Positions 8,495 to 48,961 of a stretch of DNA of 64,000 nucleotides are shown one piece after another (the stretch's first letter is position 1; the number at the start of each line of letters is the position of its first letter). The notes under the pieces were generated by a model, which saw only the letters and a list, made by a program, of their open reading frames with translations, was not told where the DNA came from and did not search any database. Origin of the DNA: Firmicutes bacterium UBA5766 (GTDB taxonomy: Bacteria > Bacillota > Desulfotomaculia > Desulfotomaculales > Nap2-2B). Where the stretch lies: positions 9,551 to 73,550 of the forward strand of contig DIEU01000001.1 of NCBI GenBank assembly GCA_002418775.1, given 5' to 3'. Made by a program: the position numbers and the translations under genes.

Positions 8495-9442
8495 ATGTTG
8501 GAGATTGAAAAACCAAGAATAGAATGTTTACAGGTTAATGATGATAATAACTATGCCAAGTTTGTCATGGAACCTTTGGAAAGAGGATACGGGATTACTC
8601 TTGGTAATTCAATAAGAAGAGTGCTGCTTTCATCCCTTCCGGGCGCTGCAGTGACAGCAGTGAAGATTGACGGTGTTCTTCATGAGTTTTCAACTATTCC
8701 AGGGGTAGCTGAAGACGTTACTGACATAATCCTGAACCTCAAGGGTTTATGTTTAAGAATGTATTCTGATGAAGAAAAAATTCTCCGTATTGGAGCTGAG
8801 GGTGAAGGAGAAGTTCTGGCGCGGAATATTATCCATGACTCAGACATTGAAATTCTTAATCCGGACATGCATATTGCTACTATGGACAGTGGACGATTAT
8901 TTATGGAAATTATTGTGTCAAAAGGGAGAGGCTATGTATCGGCCGAAAGAAATAAAAAGGGTGAACAGGTAATAGGACTTATTCCTGTGGATTCAGTCTT
9001 CACGCCTGTCAAAAGAGTTAATTACGTTGTTGAAAACACCCGTGTCGGTCAGCGTACTGACTATGACAAATTGACTATTGAGGTATGGACTAACGGTGGT
9101 ATCAGACCTAATGAGGCAATAAGCCTTTCCGCCAAAATTTTAGGTGAACATTTACAGTTATTTATCGGTCTTACCGAGACTGTTTCAAATGAAGTAGAGA
9201 TAATGGTTGAAAAAGAAGCGGAGCAAAAAAATAAGCTTCTTGAAATGAGTATCGAAGAACTGGATCTGTCAGTAAGATCATATAACTGCTTAAAACGCGC
9301 CGGAATAAACACCGTTGAAGAATTACTCCAGCGAAATGAAGAAGAAATGATGAAAGTCCGCAATTTGGGCAGAAAGTCTCTGGAAGAGGTTGTCAAAAAA
9401 CTTAATGAGCTGAATTTATCTCTGCGCAAGAGCGACGATTAG
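8495..9442 (+). CDS. rpoA: DNA-directed RNA polymerase alpha subunit
   Basis: 315 aa, [10 protein letters not shown]...[23 protein letters not shown]...; C-terminal [20 protein letters not shown] (alpha-CTD HhH). Confidence 0.97.
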
Positions 9443-39537: not shown

Positions 39538-41091
39538 CTATACCGCCTTGAAAAGCAACGGATGCAGCTTGTTGGCGCGAGAATGGTACTCTGTGTGCAG
39601 CAGTTCTTCCGCCAGTTCACTCATTGGGTGTTCCAGAAAATTTTGATATAGAGTCGCCACTTCTGCATTCTCGTAGCTCTTGCGCTTGGGCAATGAAGTA
39701 TCGGCTTTGTAAAGAGCGGCAAGGCGCTGTTCGCGTATTGCGTCTGTGGGAGGGACAGCAGTGCGTGGTTGACCGCCGCCGGCGATGCAGCCGCCCGGGC
39801 AGGTCATGAATTCAACAAAGTGCCAGGGAGCATTTCCGGCGCGCACAGCGTCCAAAACCTTACGTCCGTTGGCCATACCGTGACATACGGCGACACGGAG
39901 CGTTCCCACTCCCGGTATATCCGCCGCCGCTTCCTTAACACCATCCATGCCGCGCACCGGAGTCAAGTTCAGGAACAGGGCAGGCGGTTCCTGACCGGTA
40001 ATCAAAAAGTAGGCTGCTCTTGCGGCAGCTTCCATAACTCCTCCGGTCGCGCCGAAAATAATTGCTCCGCCTGTTTCTTCACCCATAATAGGATCATAGT
40101 GTTCTTCGGGAAGGGATGTAAAATCAATCTTATTCTTTTTAATCATCCGGGCTAGTTCCCTGGTTGTAAGGACATAGTCTACGTCTTTAAAACCGCTGTC
40201 ATTCATTTCAGGCCTGTTGCATTCGAATTTCTTGGCTGTACAGGGCATAATGGATACAGAAACAATGCTGGCGGGGTCGATTCCTCTTGCCTTGGCATAA
40301 TAAGTTTTGGCTAAAGCGCCGAACATCTGCTGGGGCGATTTGCATGATGATATATTGGGAAGCAGATCGGGGTAGAAATACTCGCAAAACTTAATCCAGC
40401 CCGGTGAGCAGGAAGTGAATTGCGGCAGGGGCCTTTTAACCTCCCCTTTAATCCGCTTGAGCAGTTCTGTGCCCTCTTCCATAATTGTCAGGTCGGCGGT
40501 AAAGTTTGTATCAAGGACAGCGTCAAAGCCAAGCCTTCTTAAGGCTGCTATCTGCTGCCCTTCTACCTATGTGCCAGGGGGGGGGAGGCCGAACTCCTCT
40601 CCCAGGGCGACTCTTGTCGCAGGCGCTGTTTGAATTAGAACAAACTTGTTTTGATCGTTGATAGCATCATATACTTTGTCAGTATCGTCACGCTCGCTGA
40701 TTGCCTCGGTAGGACAGGCCATGGAACACTGTTCGCAGTGAATGCAGATCGTTTCGTCAACTATTGGCAAGCTGTAATAACCAAAGACACTCTCAATGTT
40801 TTCGCAAGTCTCCAGGCACTGCCCGCATAAAACGCATTTTTGATTGTCACGCATAATGGATGGATTGTCCAGGTCAATGGGAACACGGCCGCGTACCTGA
40901 GCCGGAAAAGTACCTGCGGCATTGTACTGGTTTGGCAACCAGCCTTCGCCGCCCGGGCGTTTCGGGTTCTTGTCGTCGCAGCCGGCCAGAGCGCCGGTTA
41001 AACCGGCCAACAGCCCCATGCTTGTTGCCATTTTTAGAAAGGAACGGCGAGTAACTGCTTTGTTATCTGGGCAACTGGCGCCATCTTTCAT
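39538..41091 (-). pseudogene. hydA: Tat-exported [FeFe]-hydrogenase catalytic subunit interrupted by one in-frame TAG (40567-40569)
   Basis: The N-terminal ORF (174 aa) has TRRSFLK, LAGC and two CxxCxxCxxxC(P) ferredoxin motifs, and ends ...QTAPATRVALGEEFGLPPPGT. The C-terminal ORF has MPCTAKKFE and EFMTCPGGCIAGGGQP. Both are in one frame, and the 28 intervening codons read as hydrogenase (VEGQQIAALRRLGFDAVLDTNFTADLTI). Confidence 0.88.
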
Positions 41092-41302: not shown

Positions 41303-41731
41303 CATTAAAAATAAAAAATTTCTGAATTTACTTATAAGGAATAAAAACACACAGCTGGCTTCAGCCAACATTAATTTGTTGAATTATATATTTAACTTTG
41401 GACTATGTCAACAGAAAAATTTCATGTGTGTTATTAATAAGCGGTAATGGAATGTTATAAATCAACAATCAGGGAAAATATTATCACTCTCCTGGCAGGG
41501 AACCGTCCCCTATGAAGAAATTTCTGTTGACAAAAATAGTGATATTCTATACTTTTAAATAAGAAAATGGAATATTTATGAAAGAAGTTTAGTAATTTCA
41601 AGGTAACTATGTCATATTGTTACAGACTTTTTTATCAAAATTTAGGAATTAAAAATATTTGATGGAGGTGATTAATAGAAACGAAAAATCAATCTAGTGT
41701 ATGAATATGAAAAAAGTGGGGGGATTTATTT

Positions 41732-43813
41732 ATGAAAAAAGCGTCAATAGTTATTGCGGTGTTGCTTTTGTTTTTATGTTTCTGTGGTGTAGCTTCCGCA
41801 GAAAATGTTGCAAAAGGGAAGTGGGCGGAACAGTCCAGTACGGATTATAATGCGCCACCGACTAGGGCTGTAGATGGAAATACTGATGGTAAATTTTGGA
41901 ATGGTTCGGTATCCCATACTAAGTTTGAGCACACTCCCTGGTGGCAGGTCGATCTGGGGGCCTCTTACTACATTAACAGCGTTATTATCAGCAACAGGAC
42001 TGATTGTTGCGGAGAGAGGTTGAGTGACTATTACGTTTTTGTTTCTGATAGTCCATTCACAACTAACGATGTGAATGCTCTTGCAGGGCAGAGTAATGTA
42101 GGCAAATTCTATATTTCAGGTCCAAACGGTTTGCAAAATCAGTTAAGCATTAACCGGAGCGGGCGTTATGTCAGGATACAACTAACTGGAGACAATTATC
42201 TTCATATAGCTGAGGTGGAAGTTTTGACTTCTGGTGTGAGCACTTCCTCTGCCTCCATTAACGCTACCGTTAGCCCTGGAACCTTGGACATAACAGTTAA
42301 ATACTCCGGGGCTCCTGGAAACGCAAAGGATTGGATTGGTTTTTACAAAGTAGGTTCTGCAGACAATGGATATATCAGTTATCAGTATTTAAACGGCAAT
42401 AAGAGCGGATCTCTAGCTTTCAAGGCGCCAGAACCCGGCGCCTATAATTTCCGCATGTTTGAAAATGATGGCTACAAATTACTTGCCACCAGCAACAATT
42501 TAGTAGCGGCATATAGCGCAAGCTTGACGGCAAAACTTGACGCCTCCGGAGAAAATATTACAGTTACTTACTCCATGGGTCCTGGGAACGCGAAGGATTG
42601 GATAGGTATATACAAAGTAGGCGCTGCAGACAATGGATATATCAGTTATCAGTATTTAAACGGCAATAAGAATGGCTCACTTACTTTCAAGGCGCCGGCA
42701 GTTTCCAATGTGCCACAAGTCGGCACTTATAATTTCCGCATGTTTGTAAATGACGGCTATACACTGCTTGCTACCAGCAACGAAATAGTAATTGGTCAGT
42801 CGACTTACAACTTGACGGCAACACTAAGTGGGGGCAATATCACAGTTACATACTCCGGGGCGCCCGGCAACGCGAGGGATTGGATCGGCATTTACAAAGT
42901 AGGCGCTGCAGACAATGGATATATCAGTTATCAGTATTTAAACGGCAAAAAGTCAGGCTCACTTAATTTCACAGCGCCGACAACCGCAGGTTCTTATAAT
43001 TTCCGTATGTTTGTAAATGACGGCTATACACTGCTTGCTACCAGCAACGAAGTAGTTATTGGTCAGCAAACTTCCGAACAAAATCTGAAAGCAGCCCCAG
43101 GTGACGGCAAGGTTTATCTGAGCTGGAATAAAGACACAAACACCAGCGTGATAGGTTATCACCTTTTCAGGGGCACATCCAGCGGCGGGGAAACCTCAAC
43201 CCCGGTAACGGACTTTGCAATAAAAGAAACCTCCTACGCCGACCCCAATGTCAGCAACGGGATTAAGTATTGCTATATTATGAAGCCGGTTTATAGTGGC
43301 GAAAAGCTAGGCGGAGCTTCCAACGAAGCCTGCGCGACACCGACGCCAAACAGTGGAGGTTCGTCTGGAGGATCCGGAAGCGGAACAGGAACAGGAACCG
43401 GAACCGGGACCGATAATCCCGTAGCAAAGGGAACAAAGATCGTTCTCCTGATCAACAATCCTTACATGACAGTAAACGACGTCAGTAAAGAAATAGACCC
43501 TGGCCGGGGAACAGTGCCCCTTATTTTGAAGGGTAGGACCCTTTTGCCAATCCGGTCTATTGTCGAAGCCATAGGCGGAGAGATTAAATGGAACGAATCT
43601 GAACGAAAAGTAACCATCCTTGTAGGAGCAACTACGATAGAAATGTGGATAGACAGTACTAACACGCGTGTTAACGGGTCTAATAGAACAACAGATGTTG
43701 CTCCTGCAATAATCAACGGAAGAACAATGCTTCCCCTGAGGTTTGTAGCAGAAAACCTGGGCGCTAATGTGAATTGGGACTCCGTAAATTACAAAATAAC
43801 GCTCCTCTTTTAA
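41732..43813 (+). CDS. Secreted multidomain surface protein: F-type lectin, three repeats, FN3, GS/GT linker, copper-amine-oxidase-N-like domain
   Basis: 693 aa with a signal peptide (...CGVASA). The lectin domain has SHTKFEHTPWWQVDLG...NRTDCCGERL. Three repeats of 89-96 aa carry DWIG[IF]YKVG..DNGYISYQYLNG...YNFRMF.NDGY.LLATSN. An FN3-like segment and SGGSSGGSGSGTGTGTGTGT follow. The C-terminus reads ...GRTLLPIRSIVEAIGG...GRTMLPLRFVAENLGA. Confidence 0.85.
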   Translation: MKKASIVIAVLLLFLCFCGVASAENVAKGKWAEQSSTDYNAPPTRAVDGNTDGKFWNGSVSHTKFEHTPWWQVDLGASYYINSVIISNRTDCCGERLSDYYVFVSDSPFTTNDVNALAGQSNVGKFYISGPNGLQNQLSINRSGRYVRIQLTGDNYLHIAEVEVLTSGVSTSSASINATVSPGTLDITVKYSGAPGNAKDWIGFYKVGSADNGYISYQYLNGNKSGSLAFKAPEPGAYNFRMFENDGYKLLATSNNLVAAYSASLTAKLDASGENITVTYSMGPGNAKDWIGIYKVGAADNGYISYQYLNGNKNGSLTFKAPAVSNVPQVGTYNFRMFVNDGYTLLATSNEIVIGQSTYNLTATLSGGNITVTYSGAPGNARDWIGIYKVGAADNGYISYQYLNGKKSGSLNFTAPTTAGSYNFRMFVNDGYTLLATSNEVVIGQQTSEQNLKAAPGDGKVYLSWNKDTNTSVIGYHLFRGTSSGGETSTPVTDFAIKETSYADPNVSNGIKYCYIMKPVYSGEKLGGASNEACATPTPNSGGSSGGSGSGTGTGTGTGTDNPVAKGTKIVLLINNPYMTVNDVSKEIDPGRGTVPLILKGRTLLPIRSIVEAIGGEIKWNESERKVTILVGATTIEMWIDSTNTRVNGSNRTTDVAPAIINGRTMLPLRFVAENLGANVNWDSVNYKITLLF
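42256..43070 (+). repeat. Three tandem coding repeats of about 265-290 bp with long identical nucleotide stretches
   Basis: Units start near 42256, 42521 and 42809. For example, GCAGACAATGGATATATCAGTTATCAGTATTTAAACGGCAA occurs three times, and ATAATTTCCG[CT]ATGTTTGTAAATGACGGCTATACACTGCTTGCTACCAGCAACGAA occurs twice. Confidence 0.9.
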
Positions 43814-43954
43814 AGACAGCAGAGTACTACGGGCGGCAGGTAAATAAAATTATCAGGGAGCATTACTAAAATAGGGAAAAGACTGACAAGGAAAATGAAG
43901 AAGCTAAAGCAAACAACACATATCGTTATTTAGTAGATTAATAATGAAAGATAT

Positions 43955-44000
43955 CTGATAAGATAAAAAAGCGGAGTATCTGCTTTTTTATCTTTATCAG
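43955..44000. terminator. Long A/T-flanked hairpin (bidirectional terminator) after the surface-protein gene
   Basis: CTGATAAGATAAAAAAGC-(loop GGAGTATCT)-GCTTTTTTATCTTTATCAG, an 18-bp stem with one bulge. Confidence 0.7.
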
Positions 44001-44386
44001 GCACATAATCTAAATCCAGACAAAAATTATAGTGTGATTAGTTTAAGAGGGTATTTACAAAGAACGAACTGTATGGTATCATACCTTACAATAGTTAAAA
44101 TAGAATATTTCTATCAATATTCTTCATTTTTTGCGATTAGTCGCATCATTTCTCAGCCCAAATTATTTTGCAAGTTACTCAAAAACCAAGAGCTATTTGT
44201 AAGGATATTATTTGCGCAGCTTTAATCATCGTATTTCAAGATATGCGATTATCCCGGCGAGTTAAGTAATCAGGCAATAAATTAAAGTGCATCGTATAGG
44301 AGATACATGACTGGAGTTGTTTACAAATGTTGGAATGAAAATTCAGGGTAATATATAAGGTATTGGGAAGCGAGGTGATCTAAATA

Positions 44387-44536
44387 ATGAATGAGCTGAT
44401 CTGGTCCGAGCCGCAAATAAAGGAAATTGAAATTAAGATGACAGAACTCAACAAAATTGGATTCAGTACTGATGCGTATTCTTCTTCCATACCCGGCTTG
44501 GTTGGGCGTTTAGAGCCTAATCAGCCCTGCTCTTAG
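44387..44536 (+). CDS. Lasso-peptide-type RiPP precursor 1 (49 aa, below the ORF-track cut-off)
   Basis: Hand-translated as MNELIWSEPQIKEIEIKMTE/LNKIGFSTDAYSSSIPGLVGRLEPNQPCS. GAGGTGA lies 8 nt upstream. It is paralogous to the next ORF and lies upstream of an AsnB-like enzyme and an ABC exporter. Confidence 0.75.
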   Translation: MNELIWSEPQIKEIEIKMTELNKIGFSTDAYSSSIPGLVGRLEPNQPCS

Positions 44537-44611
44537 TGTTGATGTGCAATACATTATGACCACAGGTCCTTTATCTGTTATATACTAATGAGAAGGCGAG
44601 GTGATATAGAA

Positions 44612-44770
44612 ATGAAAAAACTGATCTGGTCCGAACCTCAAATAGCAGAAATTGAAGTCAAAATAACAAGGGATTTTAATAAAGTAGGATTTAATGATGA
44701 TCTATATACACAAGCTACGAATGGTGAACTTCAGGGGGATATATGTCCTGCGGGATCGTGTGGATCATGA
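44612..44770 (+). CDS. Lasso-peptide-type RiPP precursor 2 (52 aa)
   Basis: MKKLIWSEPQIAEIEVKITR/DFNKVGFNDDLYTQATNGELQGDICPAGSCGS, with the same GAGGTGA SD. The track ORF (44588) adds 8 unlikely N-terminal residues. Confidence 0.78.
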   Translation: MKKLIWSEPQIAEIEVKITRDFNKVGFNDDLYTQATNGELQGDICPAGSCGS

Positions 44771-44955
44771 TTTTAATTCTAAAAATGTAATAGCGGAGCA
44801 GCTTTTTTAGTTTTCACAATGCTCTATTAAAATGACTGATGGTCAGTCGACAGCAGAGTGTCCCCCGGAGGATGTAACATACATTCGGTTTTTAATCAAA
44901 GTTGCCTAAGAATATTGATTTTGGCGGCAAGAAGCTAAGAGGCCTTTAAAATATA

Positions 44956-44984
44956 GGCACAAGGCTTGTGCCGTTTTATTTTTT
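44956..44984 (+). terminator. Intrinsic terminator/attenuator between the precursor genes and the cyclase gene
   Basis: GGCACAAGGCTTGTGCC hairpin followed by GTTTTATTTTTT, 37 nt before ATG 45022. Confidence 0.7.
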
Positions 44985-45021
44985 AATTTACACGATTACA
45001 CAAAGACGGTGAAAATCGAAA

Positions 45022-46965
45022 ATGAGCGCCATATGCGGCATTTATTATCTTGACGGCAGGCCGGTTGCCATGGAGACAGGCACAGCCATGATGCGCGAAT
45101 TAAGTATCTATCATGCGGATGATACTGGAGTCTGGCGAGATGGGCACGTATTTATGGGCTGCCATGCCCGTCATGTTACTCCTGAGTCGGTGCAAGAAAT
45201 TCTCCCGTTTCGCGATGACGAGGCAGGTTTATTAATAACAGCGGATGCTTTTATTGATAACCGGGTTGATTTACATGACAGGCTAGGCATTGATTATTCT
45301 CTTCGGGACAATATGACGGACAGTCAGCTTATTTTGCAGGCTTACCGGAAATGGGGCCAGGACTGCTTAAAATATCTTATAGGTGATTTTTCCTTTGTCA
45401 TTTGGGACGAAAAGCGGCAAAAACTGTTTTGCGCTGTGGATCATACAGGTACAAGAGCATTATATTATTTCCGTTCGTCAGAACTTTTTGCCTTTTCAAC
45501 TTTGATCAAACCATTATTTGTGCTGCCGGAGATTACCAAGGAGTATGATGAAAATTGGATCGCCGATTTCCTGGCTATGCCTTCCGTAATGCATCAACTG
45601 GATGCAGAGTTGACCTTATATAGGAATATTTATTTGCTGCCTGCAGGACATACTCTGACAGTATGCCCCAGTGGAGCGGAAAAGCATGTTTACTGGCAAA
45701 TCGAAAGGTATAATGAATTAAAATTAAAGACGGATCATGAATACGAAGAAGCTTTACTGGAAGTTCTTGGTGAAGCAATTCGATGCCGCAAGCGGTGTAT
45801 TCGTCCGGTGGGTGTGATGATGAGTGGAGGACTGGATTCCACCTCGGTGGCCTGTTTGGCTGCCCGGGAAATGGCTGTAAGCGGCCTGCGGCTCCAGGTA
45901 TTTAGCGCTGTACCTATGCTTGGCTATCGGGATTGGGTTCCCGCCGGGATGTTGGCTGATGAGACACCACTTATTGAAGCAGTAAGGGAACATACTGGAA
46001 ATATCGATGTTACATATTGCCGCTCTGAAGGAAAACACTCTTTAAGCGATACCGGCCGGTTTTTGGCAGTATTGGAGCAGCCTTACAAGATTATTGAGAA
46101 CCTGCTCTGGATTGACAGTATTATGATGACGGCGCAGGAATGTAATATCGGTGTCATGTTAATAGGAAGCGCGGGCAATATAACAATTTCATGGGGCGAT
46201 TCTTCATCATATCTGATGTCATTGCTAAAATCTGGTCAATGGTGGCAGTTTCTGCGCGAAAGCCGGAACACAGCCAGGCGTTACCGCAGACCGTTAAAGG
46301 CGTGGCTTAGGTTAATGGATAGAATGCTTCCATATAACTTAAAAATAAATATAAATAGAATCAAAGACCGCGATTGGCACAAGAAGATGCAAGGCCTGTC
46401 TCCCATAAACCCGGATTTTGCACGTTACATTAATGTGCAGGAGAGATTTCGCCGGTTTGGGTATGATCCATATTATTTAAGGCAACTGGACTCTTTTGAA
46501 TCTCGAAAAAAGTATTTTAAACCGGATTTATTCAGTCATCTTGGCGTCATTATGACCAAACATTCGTTGGCTTATGGAATACCGCTGCGTGACCCGACAA
46601 TGGATAAGCGGGTAATCGAATTTTGTCTCAGTTTGCCGGAAAACCAGTATGTGCGCAATGGCCGGGACAGGTTTTTGATCCGTCGGGCTATGAAAGGCAT
46701 TTTGCCTGACGAAGTGCGGCAGAACGTGACGATGCATGGTAAGCAGAACGCCGATTTAGCCCAGCGACTGCAATCTTGCTGGACGGAACTGGCTGAAGAA
46801 ATAAAAGATATCGGCCTTTTGGAAACTGAGCGAAAGTATCTTGATGTTGCCAAAATTCGGTTTGAACTAGAAAAATATAAAACCATAAATGATGATGCGG
46901 CAGATGACTTCGGCTTGCGTATGTTAATACGCAGTCTAATCTTCAGCAGGTTTTTAAGACAGTAA
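45022..46965 (+). CDS. Asparagine-synthetase-fold enzyme, putative lasso-peptide macrolactam cyclase (C protein)
   Basis: 647 aa. The N-terminal Ntn-amidotransferase-like domain starts MSAICGIYY. The PP-loop reads VGVMMSGGLDSTSVACL. Its context is after the precursors and before the ABC exporter. Confidence 0.8.
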   Translation: MSAICGIYYLDGRPVAMETGTAMMRELSIYHADDTGVWRDGHVFMGCHARHVTPESVQEILPFRDDEAGLLITADAFIDNRVDLHDRLGIDYSLRDNMTDSQLILQAYRKWGQDCLKYLIGDFSFVIWDEKRQKLFCAVDHTGTRALYYFRSSELFAFSTLIKPLFVLPEITKEYDENWIADFLAMPSVMHQLDAELTLYRNIYLLPAGHTLTVCPSGAEKHVYWQIERYNELKLKTDHEYEEALLEVLGEAIRCRKRCIRPVGVMMSGGLDSTSVACLAAREMAVSGLRLQVFSAVPMLGYRDWVPAGMLADETPLIEAVREHTGNIDVTYCRSEGKHSLSDTGRFLAVLEQPYKIIENLLWIDSIMMTAQECNIGVMLIGSAGNITISWGDSSSYLMSLLKSGQWWQFLRESRNTARRYRRPLKAWLRLMDRMLPYNLKININRIKDRDWHKKMQGLSPINPDFARYINVQERFRRFGYDPYYLRQLDSFESRKKYFKPDLFSHLGVIMTKHSLAYGIPLRDPTMDKRVIEFCLSLPENQYVRNGRDRFLIRRAMKGILPDEVRQNVTMHGKQNADLAQRLQSCWTELAEEIKDIGLLETERKYLDVAKIRFELEKYKTINDDAADDFGLRMLIRSLIFSRFLRQ

Positions 46966-47034
46966 ATACATACGTGTTTTTATTGGCCGGCGTTTGTAAA
47001 ATTAAACGGGGAATTTAATTAAGGATTTTGAGAA

Positions 47035-48849
47035 ATGGATATACTTTTAATTTATGTCAGGGAGTTATTCGATTTATCTCCAAAGAAACTTATCGTTAAT
47101 ATGATGCTGATGGTTGTGCTTGGTATTATAGAGGGCATAGGCACATTAATGATCATACCGTTATTAATGGTATCCGGCATTATTCCCGGTATGCAAGAGA
47201 GCAGCGGATTGACTTTCTGGCTGAATCACATTTTTCAAATCGCCGGCGTACCATTAAATTTGCCGGTTATATTATTGTTGTATATAGGTCTTAATTTTGG
47301 GCAGAGCTGGCTGCAACGCTTTCAAACCATACTTAATTTTGATATACAGCAGTCATTTGCTGTTTTTTTGTCTTCCAGGTTGTTTCGGGTTGTAGCCTAT
47401 GCCGAGTGGCAGCTTTTGATATCCAAGACGAAATCGGATATTACCAATGTTATTATAAATGAATTAATACGTGTTTATTCAGGTGTAAATTTTTTCTTGC
47501 AGATAATAACTAACTCACTGATCACTTTAATACAAATTATTTTTGCTTTTATAATAGCTCCTGCACTGACTTGTTTAGTACTGGCCGGAGCTTTTATTTT
47601 ATTCATGTCTTTACAAACATTTACTAAAGAGTCCCGCAGGATGGGACAACATGTTTCGGATTTAAACCGTGATTTGCTTTTTGATCTTACGGAGCATTTA
47701 AACGGTATAAAAGAAATTAAGAGCTATGGTGTTGAGGCTGCTCAGATACGCAATTTTGTCAAGGCGCGTAATATGATGAAGGAGAATCTGGTCAGATTTA
47801 ACGCAATTCAGACCAGGACAGCCATGGCGTATAAAGTTGGCGCGGCTGTCTTTATAAGCTTGTTCTTGTTCAGCGCAATTGAGATATTCAGGCCAAATCC
47901 CCAGGTACTCATAATAATTGCCGTTATTTCGGCACGTCTCTGGCCCAGGCTTGCTTCCTTTCAAACGGGTTTACAGAATATTAATATGAATCTTCCCGCT
48001 TTTCGTGCTGCAAAAGAATTGGAAAATCAATGCCTTGCCGCCCGTGAGAACATGCCGGAAGAAGGAATCATGAGAAGGATGGAGTTAAAGTACGGAGTCG
48101 AATTCCGCAATGTTTCGTTTTTCTATGACTCCGATCGTGCAAGTTATGCTGTTAAAGAAGTTAATTTTGAACTTCCTGTCGGCACAACTACCGCTTTTGT
48201 TGGCGTTTCCGGTGCAGGTAAAAGCACTTTGGTAGATTTATTAATTGGATTGTTAACACCAAAAGAGGGAGATATTTTAATAGACGGTGAACAATTGCTG
48301 GATAATTTGCGTCCGTGGAGAAATTCTATAGGTTACGTACCGCAGGACGCGCTTTTATTTAACGCCAGCATCAGGGATAACCTGTTATGGGCTTGTCCGG
48401 ATGCTGCAGAGGATGATATGTGGGAATCCTTGCGGTTAGCTGCTATCGATTCCTTTATCGGCAGTCTCCCGAATGGTCTGGATACAGTTGTGGGCGATAG
48501 GGGAGTGCGTTTATCCGGTGGCGAGCGGCAGCGTGTTGTTCTGGCGAGGGCGCTTTTAAGAAAGCCGTCGGTTCTTATTTTGGATGAAGCCACGAGTTCC
48601 TTGGATTCTGAAAACGAAACACGTATCCAGCAAGCTATTGAAAACCTGCAGGGTAAAATGACAATCGTAATTGTCGCTCATCGTATATCAACGATTAGGA
48701 ATGCTGACCAGATTCTTGTGCTTGAGCAGGGGCAAATCGTGGAGAAGGGAAATTATCAATCGTTGATGAAAAACAAAGATGGCCGGTTCTATGCCTTAGC
48801 CAGCCAATATAGTGATGAAGAGCGTTTCGCAGGCTGCACATCTATTTAA
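47035..48849 (+). CDS. ABC exporter, fused TMD-NBD (McjD-like D protein)
   Basis: 604 aa with an N-terminal six-helix-type TMD. It has Walker A GVSGAGKST, signature LSGGERQRV, Walker B ILILDEATSSLD and an H-loop VAHR. Confidence 0.9.
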   Translation: MDILLIYVRELFDLSPKKLIVNMMLMVVLGIIEGIGTLMIIPLLMVSGIIPGMQESSGLTFWLNHIFQIAGVPLNLPVILLLYIGLNFGQSWLQRFQTILNFDIQQSFAVFLSSRLFRVVAYAEWQLLISKTKSDITNVIINELIRVYSGVNFFLQIITNSLITLIQIIFAFIIAPALTCLVLAGAFILFMSLQTFTKESRRMGQHVSDLNRDLLFDLTEHLNGIKEIKSYGVEAAQIRNFVKARNMMKENLVRFNAIQTRTAMAYKVGAAVFISLFLFSAIEIFRPNPQVLIIIAVISARLWPRLASFQTGLQNINMNLPAFRAAKELENQCLAARENMPEEGIMRRMELKYGVEFRNVSFFYDSDRASYAVKEVNFELPVGTTTAFVGVSGAGKSTLVDLLIGLLTPKEGDILIDGEQLLDNLRPWRNSIGYVPQDALLFNASIRDNLLWACPDAAEDDMWESLRLAAIDSFIGSLPNGLDTVVGDRGVRLSGGERQRVVLARALLRKPSVLILDEATSSLDSENETRIQQAIENLQGKMTIVIVAHRISTIRNADQILVLEQGQIVEKGNYQSLMKNKDGRFYALASQYSDEERFAGCTSI

Positions 48850-48859
48850 AAGCAATCAA

Positions 48860-48961
48860 ATGAAATCAGTCAAAGTTTTGAGAAGAAAATTAATTAATGC
48901 TGTTTTAACGATTTTTGCAGCAGTTGCACTGGCAACATTCATTGCAAACAGTCCGGCATGA
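48860..48961 (+). CDS. Possible 33-aa single-pass membrane peptide
   Basis: Hand-translated as MKSVKVLRRKLINAVLTIFAAVALATFIANSPA. It starts 10 nt after the ABC gene stop. No SD, so it is weakly supported. Confidence 0.2.
   Translation: MKSVKVLRRKLINAVLTIFAAVALATFIANSPA

Follow-up and report, generated by a model that had tools for sequence, protein, structure and literature searches.

Paeninodin represents the kinase-associated lasso peptides of the Bacillota. Its gene cluster (padeCAKB1B2D, Paenibacillus dendritiformis C454) encodes a precursor (A), a cyclase (C), a kinase (K), a B function split into B1 and B2, and an exporter (D) (PMC5067487, PMC9266682, PMC13381572). In paeninodin-like leaders, the tryptophan of the WxxP motif hardly varies and serves as a binding residue for the recognition element (RRE) of this class of peptides that are made on ribosomes and modified after translation (RiPPs) (PMC13381572); B1 hands the leader to B2 (PMC5067487), and the C-terminal serine is the target of the cluster kinase (PMC9266682). 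Here, we compare these systems with a locus in a 64-kb stretch of Firmicutes bacterium UBA5766 (contig DIEU01000001.1, positions 9,551 to 73,550), referred to as the window; coordinates without a prefix refer to it, and L-numbers denote fetched comparison loci. This locus (locus 1, 44387-48849, plus strand) begins with a pair of paralogous precursor genes, followed by a hairpin terminator, the cyclase gene (C1), and the gene of an ATP-binding cassette (ABC) exporter (D1). We conclude, with a probability of about 0.8, that it is the precursor/cyclase/exporter half of a dispersed, otherwise conventional paeninodin-type lasso system, the genes of which lie in at least three places of one genome and in which B1, B2, and K would act in trans. 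The dispersed architecture is what is unusual; the family itself is known, and this member of it is uncharacterized.

The system shares with paeninodin the gene set A, C, split B1/B2, and D, together with a putative K, a WxxP leader with Trp at position −15 and Thr at position −2, a 9-membered ring predicted to close on Asp9, and a C-terminal Ser, which in paeninodin-like systems is the site that K phosphorylates. It differs in that K, B1, and B2 are found on another contig, in having two tandem precursors (four in the genome) and two cyclases, and in its longer, Cys-containing cores (29 to 32 amino acids), the products of which are known from genes alone. Its closest relatives are predicted clusters in Peptococcaceae bacterium BRH_c4b, Desulfofarcimen acetoxidans DSM 771, and Sporomusa malonica, which have homologous precursors and in which C is 61 to 72% and D is 65 to 78% identical to the proteins described here. 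The D. acetoxidans clusters were already noted by genome mining (Asn-synthase locus tags Dtox_2340 and Dtox_3272) (PMC4289311). These clusters are contiguous, in the layout K (HPr-kinase-like), B1 (PqqD), B2 (Transglut_core3), A, C, (NTP-transferase), D, whereas at locus 1 the K-B1-B2 half is missing and the available K, B1, and B2 come from a different sublineage. Co-localization in a single cluster is the one family feature compared here that the system clearly lacks.

Three described systems bear on a split of this kind. Pseudomycoidin (psm, Bacillus pseudomycoides) is paeninodin-like, and its cluster has both B1 and B2; its production succeeded when psmCA and K-B1-B2-N-D were placed on separate plasmids (PMC6993621), so physical linkage is not required. 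The psm genes, however, form a single natural cluster, and leader independence was demonstrated only with an engineered leaderless core, whereas the precursors described here carry full leaders. Unclustered lanthipeptide leader proteases likewise mature a RiPP from elsewhere in the genome (PMC8960859), although they belong to another RiPP class and protease family, and in our case the RRE and kinase are remote as well. Finally, the loci of linear polyphosphorylated peptides (LPPs), or LPP loci (K, RRE, SipW-like peptidase, D, and N, without a cyclase), often co-reside with paeninodin-like clusters (PMC13381572), with which they have kinase, RRE, and exporter in common; locus 1 differs from them in having a cyclase and WxxP leaders.

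Locus 1 encodes paeninodin-like precursors, a lasso cyclase, and an exporter

The following features make up locus 1.

44372-44378, plus strand: Shine-Dalgarno sequence GAGGTGA of A1, read from the sequence
44387-44536, plus strand: precursor A1, 49 amino acids, assigned by homology to canonical-cluster precursors
44598-44604, plus strand: Shine-Dalgarno sequence GAGGTGA of A2, read from the sequence
44612-44770, plus strand: precursor A2, 52 amino acids counted from MKKL; a 60-amino-acid form from an upstream ATG also exists
44956-44982, plus strand: intrinsic-terminator-like hairpin and T-run between the precursor and enzyme genes, assigned by form and conservation
45022-46965, plus strand: lasso cyclase C1, 647 amino acids, ATP-dependent macrolactam synthetase of the Asn-synthetase fold (Pfam GATase_7 and Asn_synthase)
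47035-48849, plus strand: ABC exporter D1, 604 amino acids, with fused transmembrane and nucleotide-binding domains (Pfam ABC_membrane and ABC_tran)

A first-pass annotation of this DNA had listed the same precursors, Shine-Dalgarno sequences, terminator, cyclase, and exporter and had called the locus lasso-peptide-like; we recovered each of these elements at the same coordinates and agree with the identification.

Both precursors match A1 of locus L007, a canonical-cluster precursor (E = 1.5e-10 for A1 and 6e-12 for A2). A1 consists of the leader MNELIWSEPQIKEIEIKMTE (44387-44446) and the predicted core LNKIGFSTDAYSSSIPGLVGRLEPNQPCS, which ends in Ser; A2 consists of the leader MKKLIWSEPQIAEIEVKITR and the predicted core DFNKVGFNDDLYTQATNGELQGDICPAGSCGS, with Asp9, two Cys residues, and a C-terminal Ser. 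The 20-residue leaders carry W6, P9, I11, and T19, placing Trp at −15 (as in PbaA), Pro at −12 within an xxPxI motif, and Thr at −2, and they follow the form W-x-x-P-x-I-x-E-I-x-[IV]-K-x-T-x that is also found in canonical-cluster precursors. Asp9 is present in both cores (LNKIGFSTD in A1 and DFNKVGFND in A2) and in A4, a precursor of locus 3 described below; in A1, the ring is predicted to join Leu1 and Asp9. All four precursors of the genome (A1 to A4) end in Ser. The leader motif, Asp9, the terminal Ser, and a variable core are thus common to A1, A2, and the precursors of complete clusters, and, judged by sequence, these features are hallmarks of paeninodin-like lasso precursors. The curated precursor model NF033524 matched neither A1 nor A2 and gave A4 21 bits against a cutoff of 27. 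With such leader motifs and a terminal Ser, the precursors would be expected to depend on B1, B2, and K, all of which the window lacks. Translation of a leaderless core from a start codon inside the gene was also considered and rejected, as the only internal Met, at −3, would leave leader residues in place.

C1 carries the PP-loop SGGLDS at residues 268 to 273 (45823-45840). Its top NCBIfam match is the lasso cyclase model NF033535 (424 bits; cutoff, 525); the AsnB-type models TIGR01536 (159.5 bits; cutoff, 267) and NF006949 (88 bits; cutoff, 499) score lower and also fall below their cutoffs. C1 shares a two-domain fold and the PP-loop SGGxDS with housekeeping asparagine synthetase B, but it begins MSAICG (MSxICG is conserved in its clade) and thus lacks the N-terminal Cys that acts as the class-II glutaminase nucleophile. 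C1 shares 72% identity with the BRH_c4b cyclase, 65% with that of S. malonica, and 61% with that of D. acetoxidans DSM 771, and its architecture contains no feature that distinguishes it from the cyclases of complete clusters. When placed against lasso cyclases and AsnB, as the first-pass annotation had proposed, C1 groups with the former, and we rejected a role as housekeeping asparagine synthetase B. A PDB sequence search with C1 returned only AsnB-type enzymes and a hydroxyamidotransferase and detected no solved lasso cyclase. D1 is 78% identical to the BRH_c4b cluster exporter; it has no C39 peptidase domain, which rules it out as a leader-cleaving peptidase-containing ABC transporter.

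The window lacks K, B1, and B2, which are present on another contig of the genome bin

Searches of the whole 64 kb with tblastn, using three sets of K/B1/B2 queries taken from related clusters, returned nothing better than E = 0.046. Profile hidden Markov models (HMMs) run on all six-frame segments of at least 25 amino acids across the window gave best E values of 3.6 (B1), 1.2 (B2), and 0.033 (K), the last of these being the P-loop of D1; as a positive control, comparison locus L170 scored 1e-40 to 1e-141 with the same models. In the sequence upstream of A1 (43814-44386), neither method turned up a remnant of any of these three genes. The absence of a leader peptidase and RRE reported earlier for the locus thus extends to the entire window and includes K.

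We located B2 by searching a protein collection with the B2 of the closest relative, reading the cluster members, and looking up the exact protein. This protein (P0253) is encoded in the metagenome-assembled genome (MAG) GCA_002421505.1, which carries locus 1 on contig DIKF01000022.1. The B2 gene lies on contig DIKF01000132.1 (L170; locus 2), near K and B1. A profile search of metagenome contigs with a B2 alignment listed no SCADC or MLSB contig among its matches, a false negative. The order of genes in locus 2 is K, B1, A3, an exporter pseudogene (D2), B2, and DUF1360.

L170 7564-8550: K, putative HPr-kinase-like tailoring kinase, 64% identical to the BRH_c4b cluster K
L170 8563-8853: B1, PqqD-type RRE (NF033536, 101.5 bits, cutoff 80; PF05402, E = 4e-21)
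L170 8920-9084: precursor A3, probable TTG start at 8929 (MKKVWSEP...); ortholog at L095 3823-3987
L170 10001-10462: B2, transglutaminase-like Cys protease (NF033537, 105 bits, cutoff 33)

The B1 protein matches the solved lasso RREs 9x90, TbiB1, and TfuB1, and B2 retains 21 of 21 family-invariant residues, including Cys84 and His119. For K, the matches to Hpr_kinase_C and to HprK-related models are weak, with E values of 4e-4 to 5e-6 that do not reach the cutoffs. There is no cyclase within 10 kb of locus 2. Relative to L095 (4163-5950), D2 has an internal deletion of approximately 1.08 kb (L170 9243-9990); it is intact (approximately 600 amino acids) in Desulfotomaculum sp. 46_80. This deletion leaves D1 as the only intact exporter of the family seen among the three loci of the MAG.

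Precursor A3 has a normal leader (WxxP and Thr at −2) and a C-terminal Ser and is conserved between species, with a ratio of nonsynonymous to synonymous substitution rates (dN/dS) of 0.28. Its core, NYQAHGLNGPHLPNLPHGQNGSQGPHTLTAIS, has neither Asp nor Glu, making A3 the only one of the 41 paeninodin-like precursors that we collected without any acidic residue, and it therefore cannot form a lasso macrolactam. In its gene content (K-B1-A3-D2-B2), locus 2 resembles an LPP locus, but LPP loci combine a YxxP leader with the signal-peptidase-like LppS, whereas locus 2 combines a WxxP leader with B2; no signal-peptidase (SpI-like) gene was called on L170.

A third locus, on contig DIKF01000103.1 (locus 3, L176 7803-9944), consists of precursor A4 and a second cyclase, C2, which is 60% identical to C1. 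The Cys-rich core of A4, TVKGYIGNDGMGCGAGQGCDHPGWIPPSHCCCS, starts TVKGYIGND... and ends in Ser. No B, K, or D gene is found near locus 3, which is flanked by amt/P-II genes and cell-envelope polysaccharide genes; a separate 615-amino-acid Asn-synthase gene of the same MAG is also on L176.

Because intact B1, B2, and K genes occur elsewhere in the genome bin, no new chemistry is needed to account for locus 1. The first-pass annotation had offered two options that this result separates. One was that the peptidase and RRE act in trans; the genome-wide search for PqqD and lasso peptidase domains that it called for yields a canonical B1/B2 pair (with K) on another contig, co-occurring with the C ortholog as in an ordinary split cluster, while action in trans itself would follow by analogy. 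The other was that C1 installs a different amide without leader removal, for example on a side chain of the full-length precursor, which would be a new RiPP logic. This would suit the local absence of B1 and B2, and PsmC can cyclize a leaderless core in vivo (PMC6993621), which points to some autonomy of the cyclase. The precursors nevertheless retain full leaders with RRE-binding and Thr(−2) motifs and have Asp where the ring canonically closes, the genome does encode B1 and B2, and C1 belongs with the cyclases of complete clusters. We consider B-independent chemistry very improbable and, as an explanation, unnecessary.

The split is conserved between species

In the sister species, Desulfotomaculum sp. 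46_80, A1-A2-C1-D1 is syntenic with locus 1 at 93% nucleotide identity and lies next to an [FeFe]-hydrogenase gene. This genome also carries K-B1-A3-D2-B2-DUF1360, with D2 intact. The C ortholog is 94% identical, and orthologs of both C and B2 are assigned to 46_80 and to two third-party annotation (TPA) MAGs; the two occur together in four independently binned MAGs from two species. Loci 1 and 2 are also both present in assembly ERZ27315034, and their contigs are each approximately 90 to 96% identical in nucleotide sequence to their 46_80 counterparts. The tetranucleotide profiles of the other contigs of the MAG correlate with that of the window at 0.93 to 0.97, which further supports a common origin.

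For each part of the system, we compared the sequence with its 46_80 counterpart, with the following dN/dS values.

C: 0.16
D: 0.14
B2: 0.13
B1: 0.19
K: 0.28
A1: 0.29
Flanking genes, amylase and malQ: 0.19-0.20

These ratios, alike for the enzymes and the flanking housekeeping genes, indicate purifying selection on every part of the system. Substitutions in the precursors fall mainly in the cores: A1 differs from its sister-species ortholog at 1 of 20 leader residues (I5M) and 8 of 29 core residues, and A2 has two leader differences and a one-residue indel at the leader-core junction, with most differences in the core.

These values bear on the suggestion, raised in the first-pass annotation, that the locus is decaying, in which case A-A-C-D would be what is left after deletion of K, B1, and B2, and no product would be made. 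The absence of these genes from the window fits such a remnant, and the exporter pseudogene of locus 2, with its 1.08-kb deletion, indicates that gene loss is under way in the system. A further trace of loss may lie downstream of D1.

48890-48949, plus strand: possible 3′ remnant of a DUF1360 gene, inside a 49-amino-acid open reading frame (ORF) (48812-48961) that is otherwise unconserved

Six DUF1360 proteins match this segment in the same place and frame (LINAVLTIFAAVALATFIAN versus LIDAIITIFATISLATIITG), with 40 to 61% identity over 18 to 20 amino acids and E values of 4e-4 to 0.014 against a 1.4-kb target, and DUF1360 follows D in canonical clusters, a place that corresponds to that of the match 3′ of D1; the segment is hydrophobic, which makes this evidence weak. 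Against decay, the four ORFs of locus 1 are intact and preceded by Shine-Dalgarno sequences, dN/dS of C and D is equal to or below that of the housekeeping flanks, and the architecture and the hairpin are kept across two species. Conserved leaders with diverging cores are, moreover, the pattern of an active RiPP. Purifying selection on all parts argues that the locus is not decaying, and we consider a dead remnant improbable.

Alternatively, the K-B1-B2 contig might derive from another community member and have been binned with the rest by mistake, leaving the window's organism without B1 and B2. The MAG comes from enrichment metagenomes with co-occurring related Peptococcaceae, and the composition of L170 is somewhat different (GC content, 0.404 versus 0.448; tetranucleotide correlation with the window, 0.93 compared with 0.97 for L176). 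The sequence of locus 1 is also present in hydrocarbon and tailings enrichment metagenomes. Such an artifact would, however, have to recur in each of the four MAGs in which C and B2 orthologs are paired, and the contigs of loci 1 and 2 are equally diverged from 46_80. Locus 2, without a cyclase and (here) without an exporter, needs a partner locus, and the same kind of split is found in the RefSeq assembly of Pelotomaculum propionicicum described below. A binning artifact therefore appears to be a slim prospect.

Split clusters and shared maturation genes among relatives

One K-B1-B2 set can accompany more than one cyclase: BRH_c4b has a single K-B1-B2 set with two A-C pairs about 5 kb apart and is a precedent for sharing one set between two such pairs. 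P. propionicicum strain C1 encodes K-B1-B2-D, followed by an IS110-family transposase, on contig 12 (L185 6753-11693) and a precursor with Asp9 (core KQKPYSGND...) plus a cyclase on contig 14 (L010 3023-5172). This RefSeq assembly shows a split that is independent of the one described here, and it hints that rearrangement mediated by insertion sequences drives such splits.

We then asked how often the partners are separated. A profile search of genome contigs with a cyclase alignment listed 80 loci among its matches, about half of them distant Mesorhizobium Asn-synthase-like genes; the source genome was not among the matches listed. Both B1 and B2 were within the fetched flanks at 16 of the 21 Firmicute C-homolog loci among the matches listed; conversely, C was within about 6 kb at 20 of the 26 B2 loci fetched. 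Among the loci fetched, approximately 15 to 25% of paeninodin-clade B2 or C genes have no partner in the fetched flanks, some of them on short contigs. Co-localization is typical of the family and not a biochemical requirement, and genome-wide pairing is needed before new chemistry is claimed for a partnerless B2 or C gene. Tools that need B and C as neighbors (e.g., RODEO and antiSMASH rules) miss or misflag such loci.

Two further loci, L118 and L161 (metagenome contigs Ga0316604_10000208 and Ga0316604_10000365), encode K-B1-B2-A-N-D with normal ring acids (D9 and D8) in the precursors; the approximately 6 kb on each side of them contain no cyclase, which makes these loci additional candidates for a cyclase encoded in trans. 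L181 184-10142 (GCA_964393225.1) encodes a tandem pair of lasso-cyclase homologs, with a small precursor after each, next to radical-SAM, PqqD, HPr-kinase-like, sulfotransferase, and methyltransferase proteins, and looks like an elaborate hybrid RiPP cluster. The lasso loci of L170, L007, L008, and L176 lie in or near cell-envelope polysaccharide clusters (Wzz, Polysacc_synt_2, Bac_transf, PS_pyruv_trans, WecG, and LytR), the same neighborhood as that of paeninodin-like and LPP clusters in Bacilli (PMC13381572).

In neighbor-joining trees built from few sequences, C1 and D1 group with the complete clusters of BRH_c4b, L091, and L092; the locus 2 proteins D2, K, and B2 are placed outside this BRH_c4b-type clade, and C2 clusters with the orphan P. 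propionicicum cyclase. This placement is one of several points that weigh against a functional dispersed system, since K and B2, lying outside the clade of C1 and D1, did not co-evolve with them as one cluster, and their compatibility is assumed. In addition, B2 lies downstream of the exporter pseudogene D2, which could affect its expression, and the one-residue indel at the leader-core junction makes the cleavage register of A2 ambiguous. C1 scores 424 bits with NF033535, below the curated cutoff of 525; the complete-cluster cyclases of its clade also score below this cutoff, at 424 to 449 bits, so the low score is a property of the clade. Finally, all sequences come from MAGs and metagenome contigs, and the assignment of both contigs to one cell relies on their binning, their co-occurrence, and their equal divergence.

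Proposed maturation pathway and origin of the split

By homology to paeninodin and pseudomycoidin (PMC5067487, PMC9266682, PMC6993621), maturation in the dispersed paeninodin-type system would proceed as follows. A1 and A2 would be transcribed in excess from a promoter near 44054-44082, with most transcripts ending at the hairpin at 44956 and read-through supplying C1 and D1. The trans-encoded K would phosphorylate the C-terminal Ser of the precursors. B1 would bind the WxxPxI leader motif and present Thr(−2) to B2, which would cut the leader after residue 20. C1 would then adenylate the Asp9 side chain and join it to the new N-terminal amine, forming a 9-residue macrolactam with a threaded tail, and D1 would export the product.

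Tentatively, locus 1 may be a once-complete BRH_c4b-like cluster that has lost K, B1, and B2, whereas the cyclase of locus 2 may have been lost and, in this organism, also its exporter, by the 1.08-kb deletion; the paralogous loci would now complement each other. The locus would then cleanly exemplify paralogous RiPP clusters that have lost complementary genes, an arrangement kept by selection across species, and it raises the question of cross-lineage compatibility between an RRE and protease and foreign precursors and cyclases. No new enzymatic logic is revealed; the relevance lies in genome mining and cluster evolution and not in mechanism.

A more extended and rather doubtful scheme is a hub-and-spoke arrangement, in which one K-B1-B2 set would mature all four precursors through two remote cyclases of other lineages, after reciprocal gene loss between paralogous clusters. 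With neither Asp nor Glu in its core and without a cyclase next to it, A3 could, speculatively, be a linear phosphopeptide, phosphorylated at its C terminus and released by B1 and B2. If so, its product would be a lasso-derived counterpart of LPPs, made with B2 instead of a SipW-like peptidase (PMC13381572).

Regulatory elements and flanking sequence of locus 1

The hairpin between the precursor and enzyme genes has a GC-rich, 7-bp stem (GGCACAAGGCTTGTGCC, 44956-44972) followed by the T-run GTTTTATTTTTT, and it is 100% identical in three sister-species assemblies. Its folding energy is not exceptional relative to shuffled sequences (z = −1.44), so its assignment draws on form and conservation and not on stability. 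It is probably an attenuator that sets the ratio of precursor to enzymes. Upstream of A1, a consensus scan identified a candidate promoter.

44054-44082, plus strand: candidate sigma-70-type promoter of the A1-A2(-C-D) transcript (TTTACA, 17 nucleotides, TATCAT, with TG)

This element has 10 of 12 consensus matches and lies within the sole upstream block kept in the sister species (44048-44108, 89% identity), consistent with a role as the promoter for A1-A2(-C-D). An Rfam search of the whole window gave zero matches at gathering thresholds, and accordingly pointed to no riboswitch or leader RNA in the region upstream of A1. Beyond the four genes, the ORFs of at least 60 amino acids between 43814 and 49241 are 44034-44225, which has no family match, the longer, 60-amino-acid version of A2, and shadow frames within the C and D genes.

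The remainder of the window encodes housekeeping functions, including a ribosomal-protein operon, purine biosynthesis, glycogen metabolism, and an [FeFe] hydrogenase. In 46_80, the [FeFe]-hydrogenase gene is directly adjacent to the lasso locus, whereas the window interposes a segment (41448-44047) that is unmatched in the 46_80 locus L175. Within this segment, 41732-43813 encodes a 693-amino-acid secreted protein with an F5/8 type C domain, three SKICH-like repeats, and a Cu_amine_oxidN1 domain. On the other side, the contigs L173, L174, and L175, from three assemblies of 46_80 and relatives, all end approximately 200 bp 3′ of D1, which suggests a repeat or mobile element at this position in 46_80; in the window's organism, hpt-guaA-pur genes are found 3′ of D1.

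The hydrogenase large-subunit gene itself (minus strand) contains an in-frame TAG at 40567-40569, where the sister species has TGG (Trp). This codon splits the gene into ORFs of 174 and 314 amino acids, and the same split is called in six of six assemblies; the gene could be a pseudogene, or the TAG could be read through or be an amber codon that is recoded.

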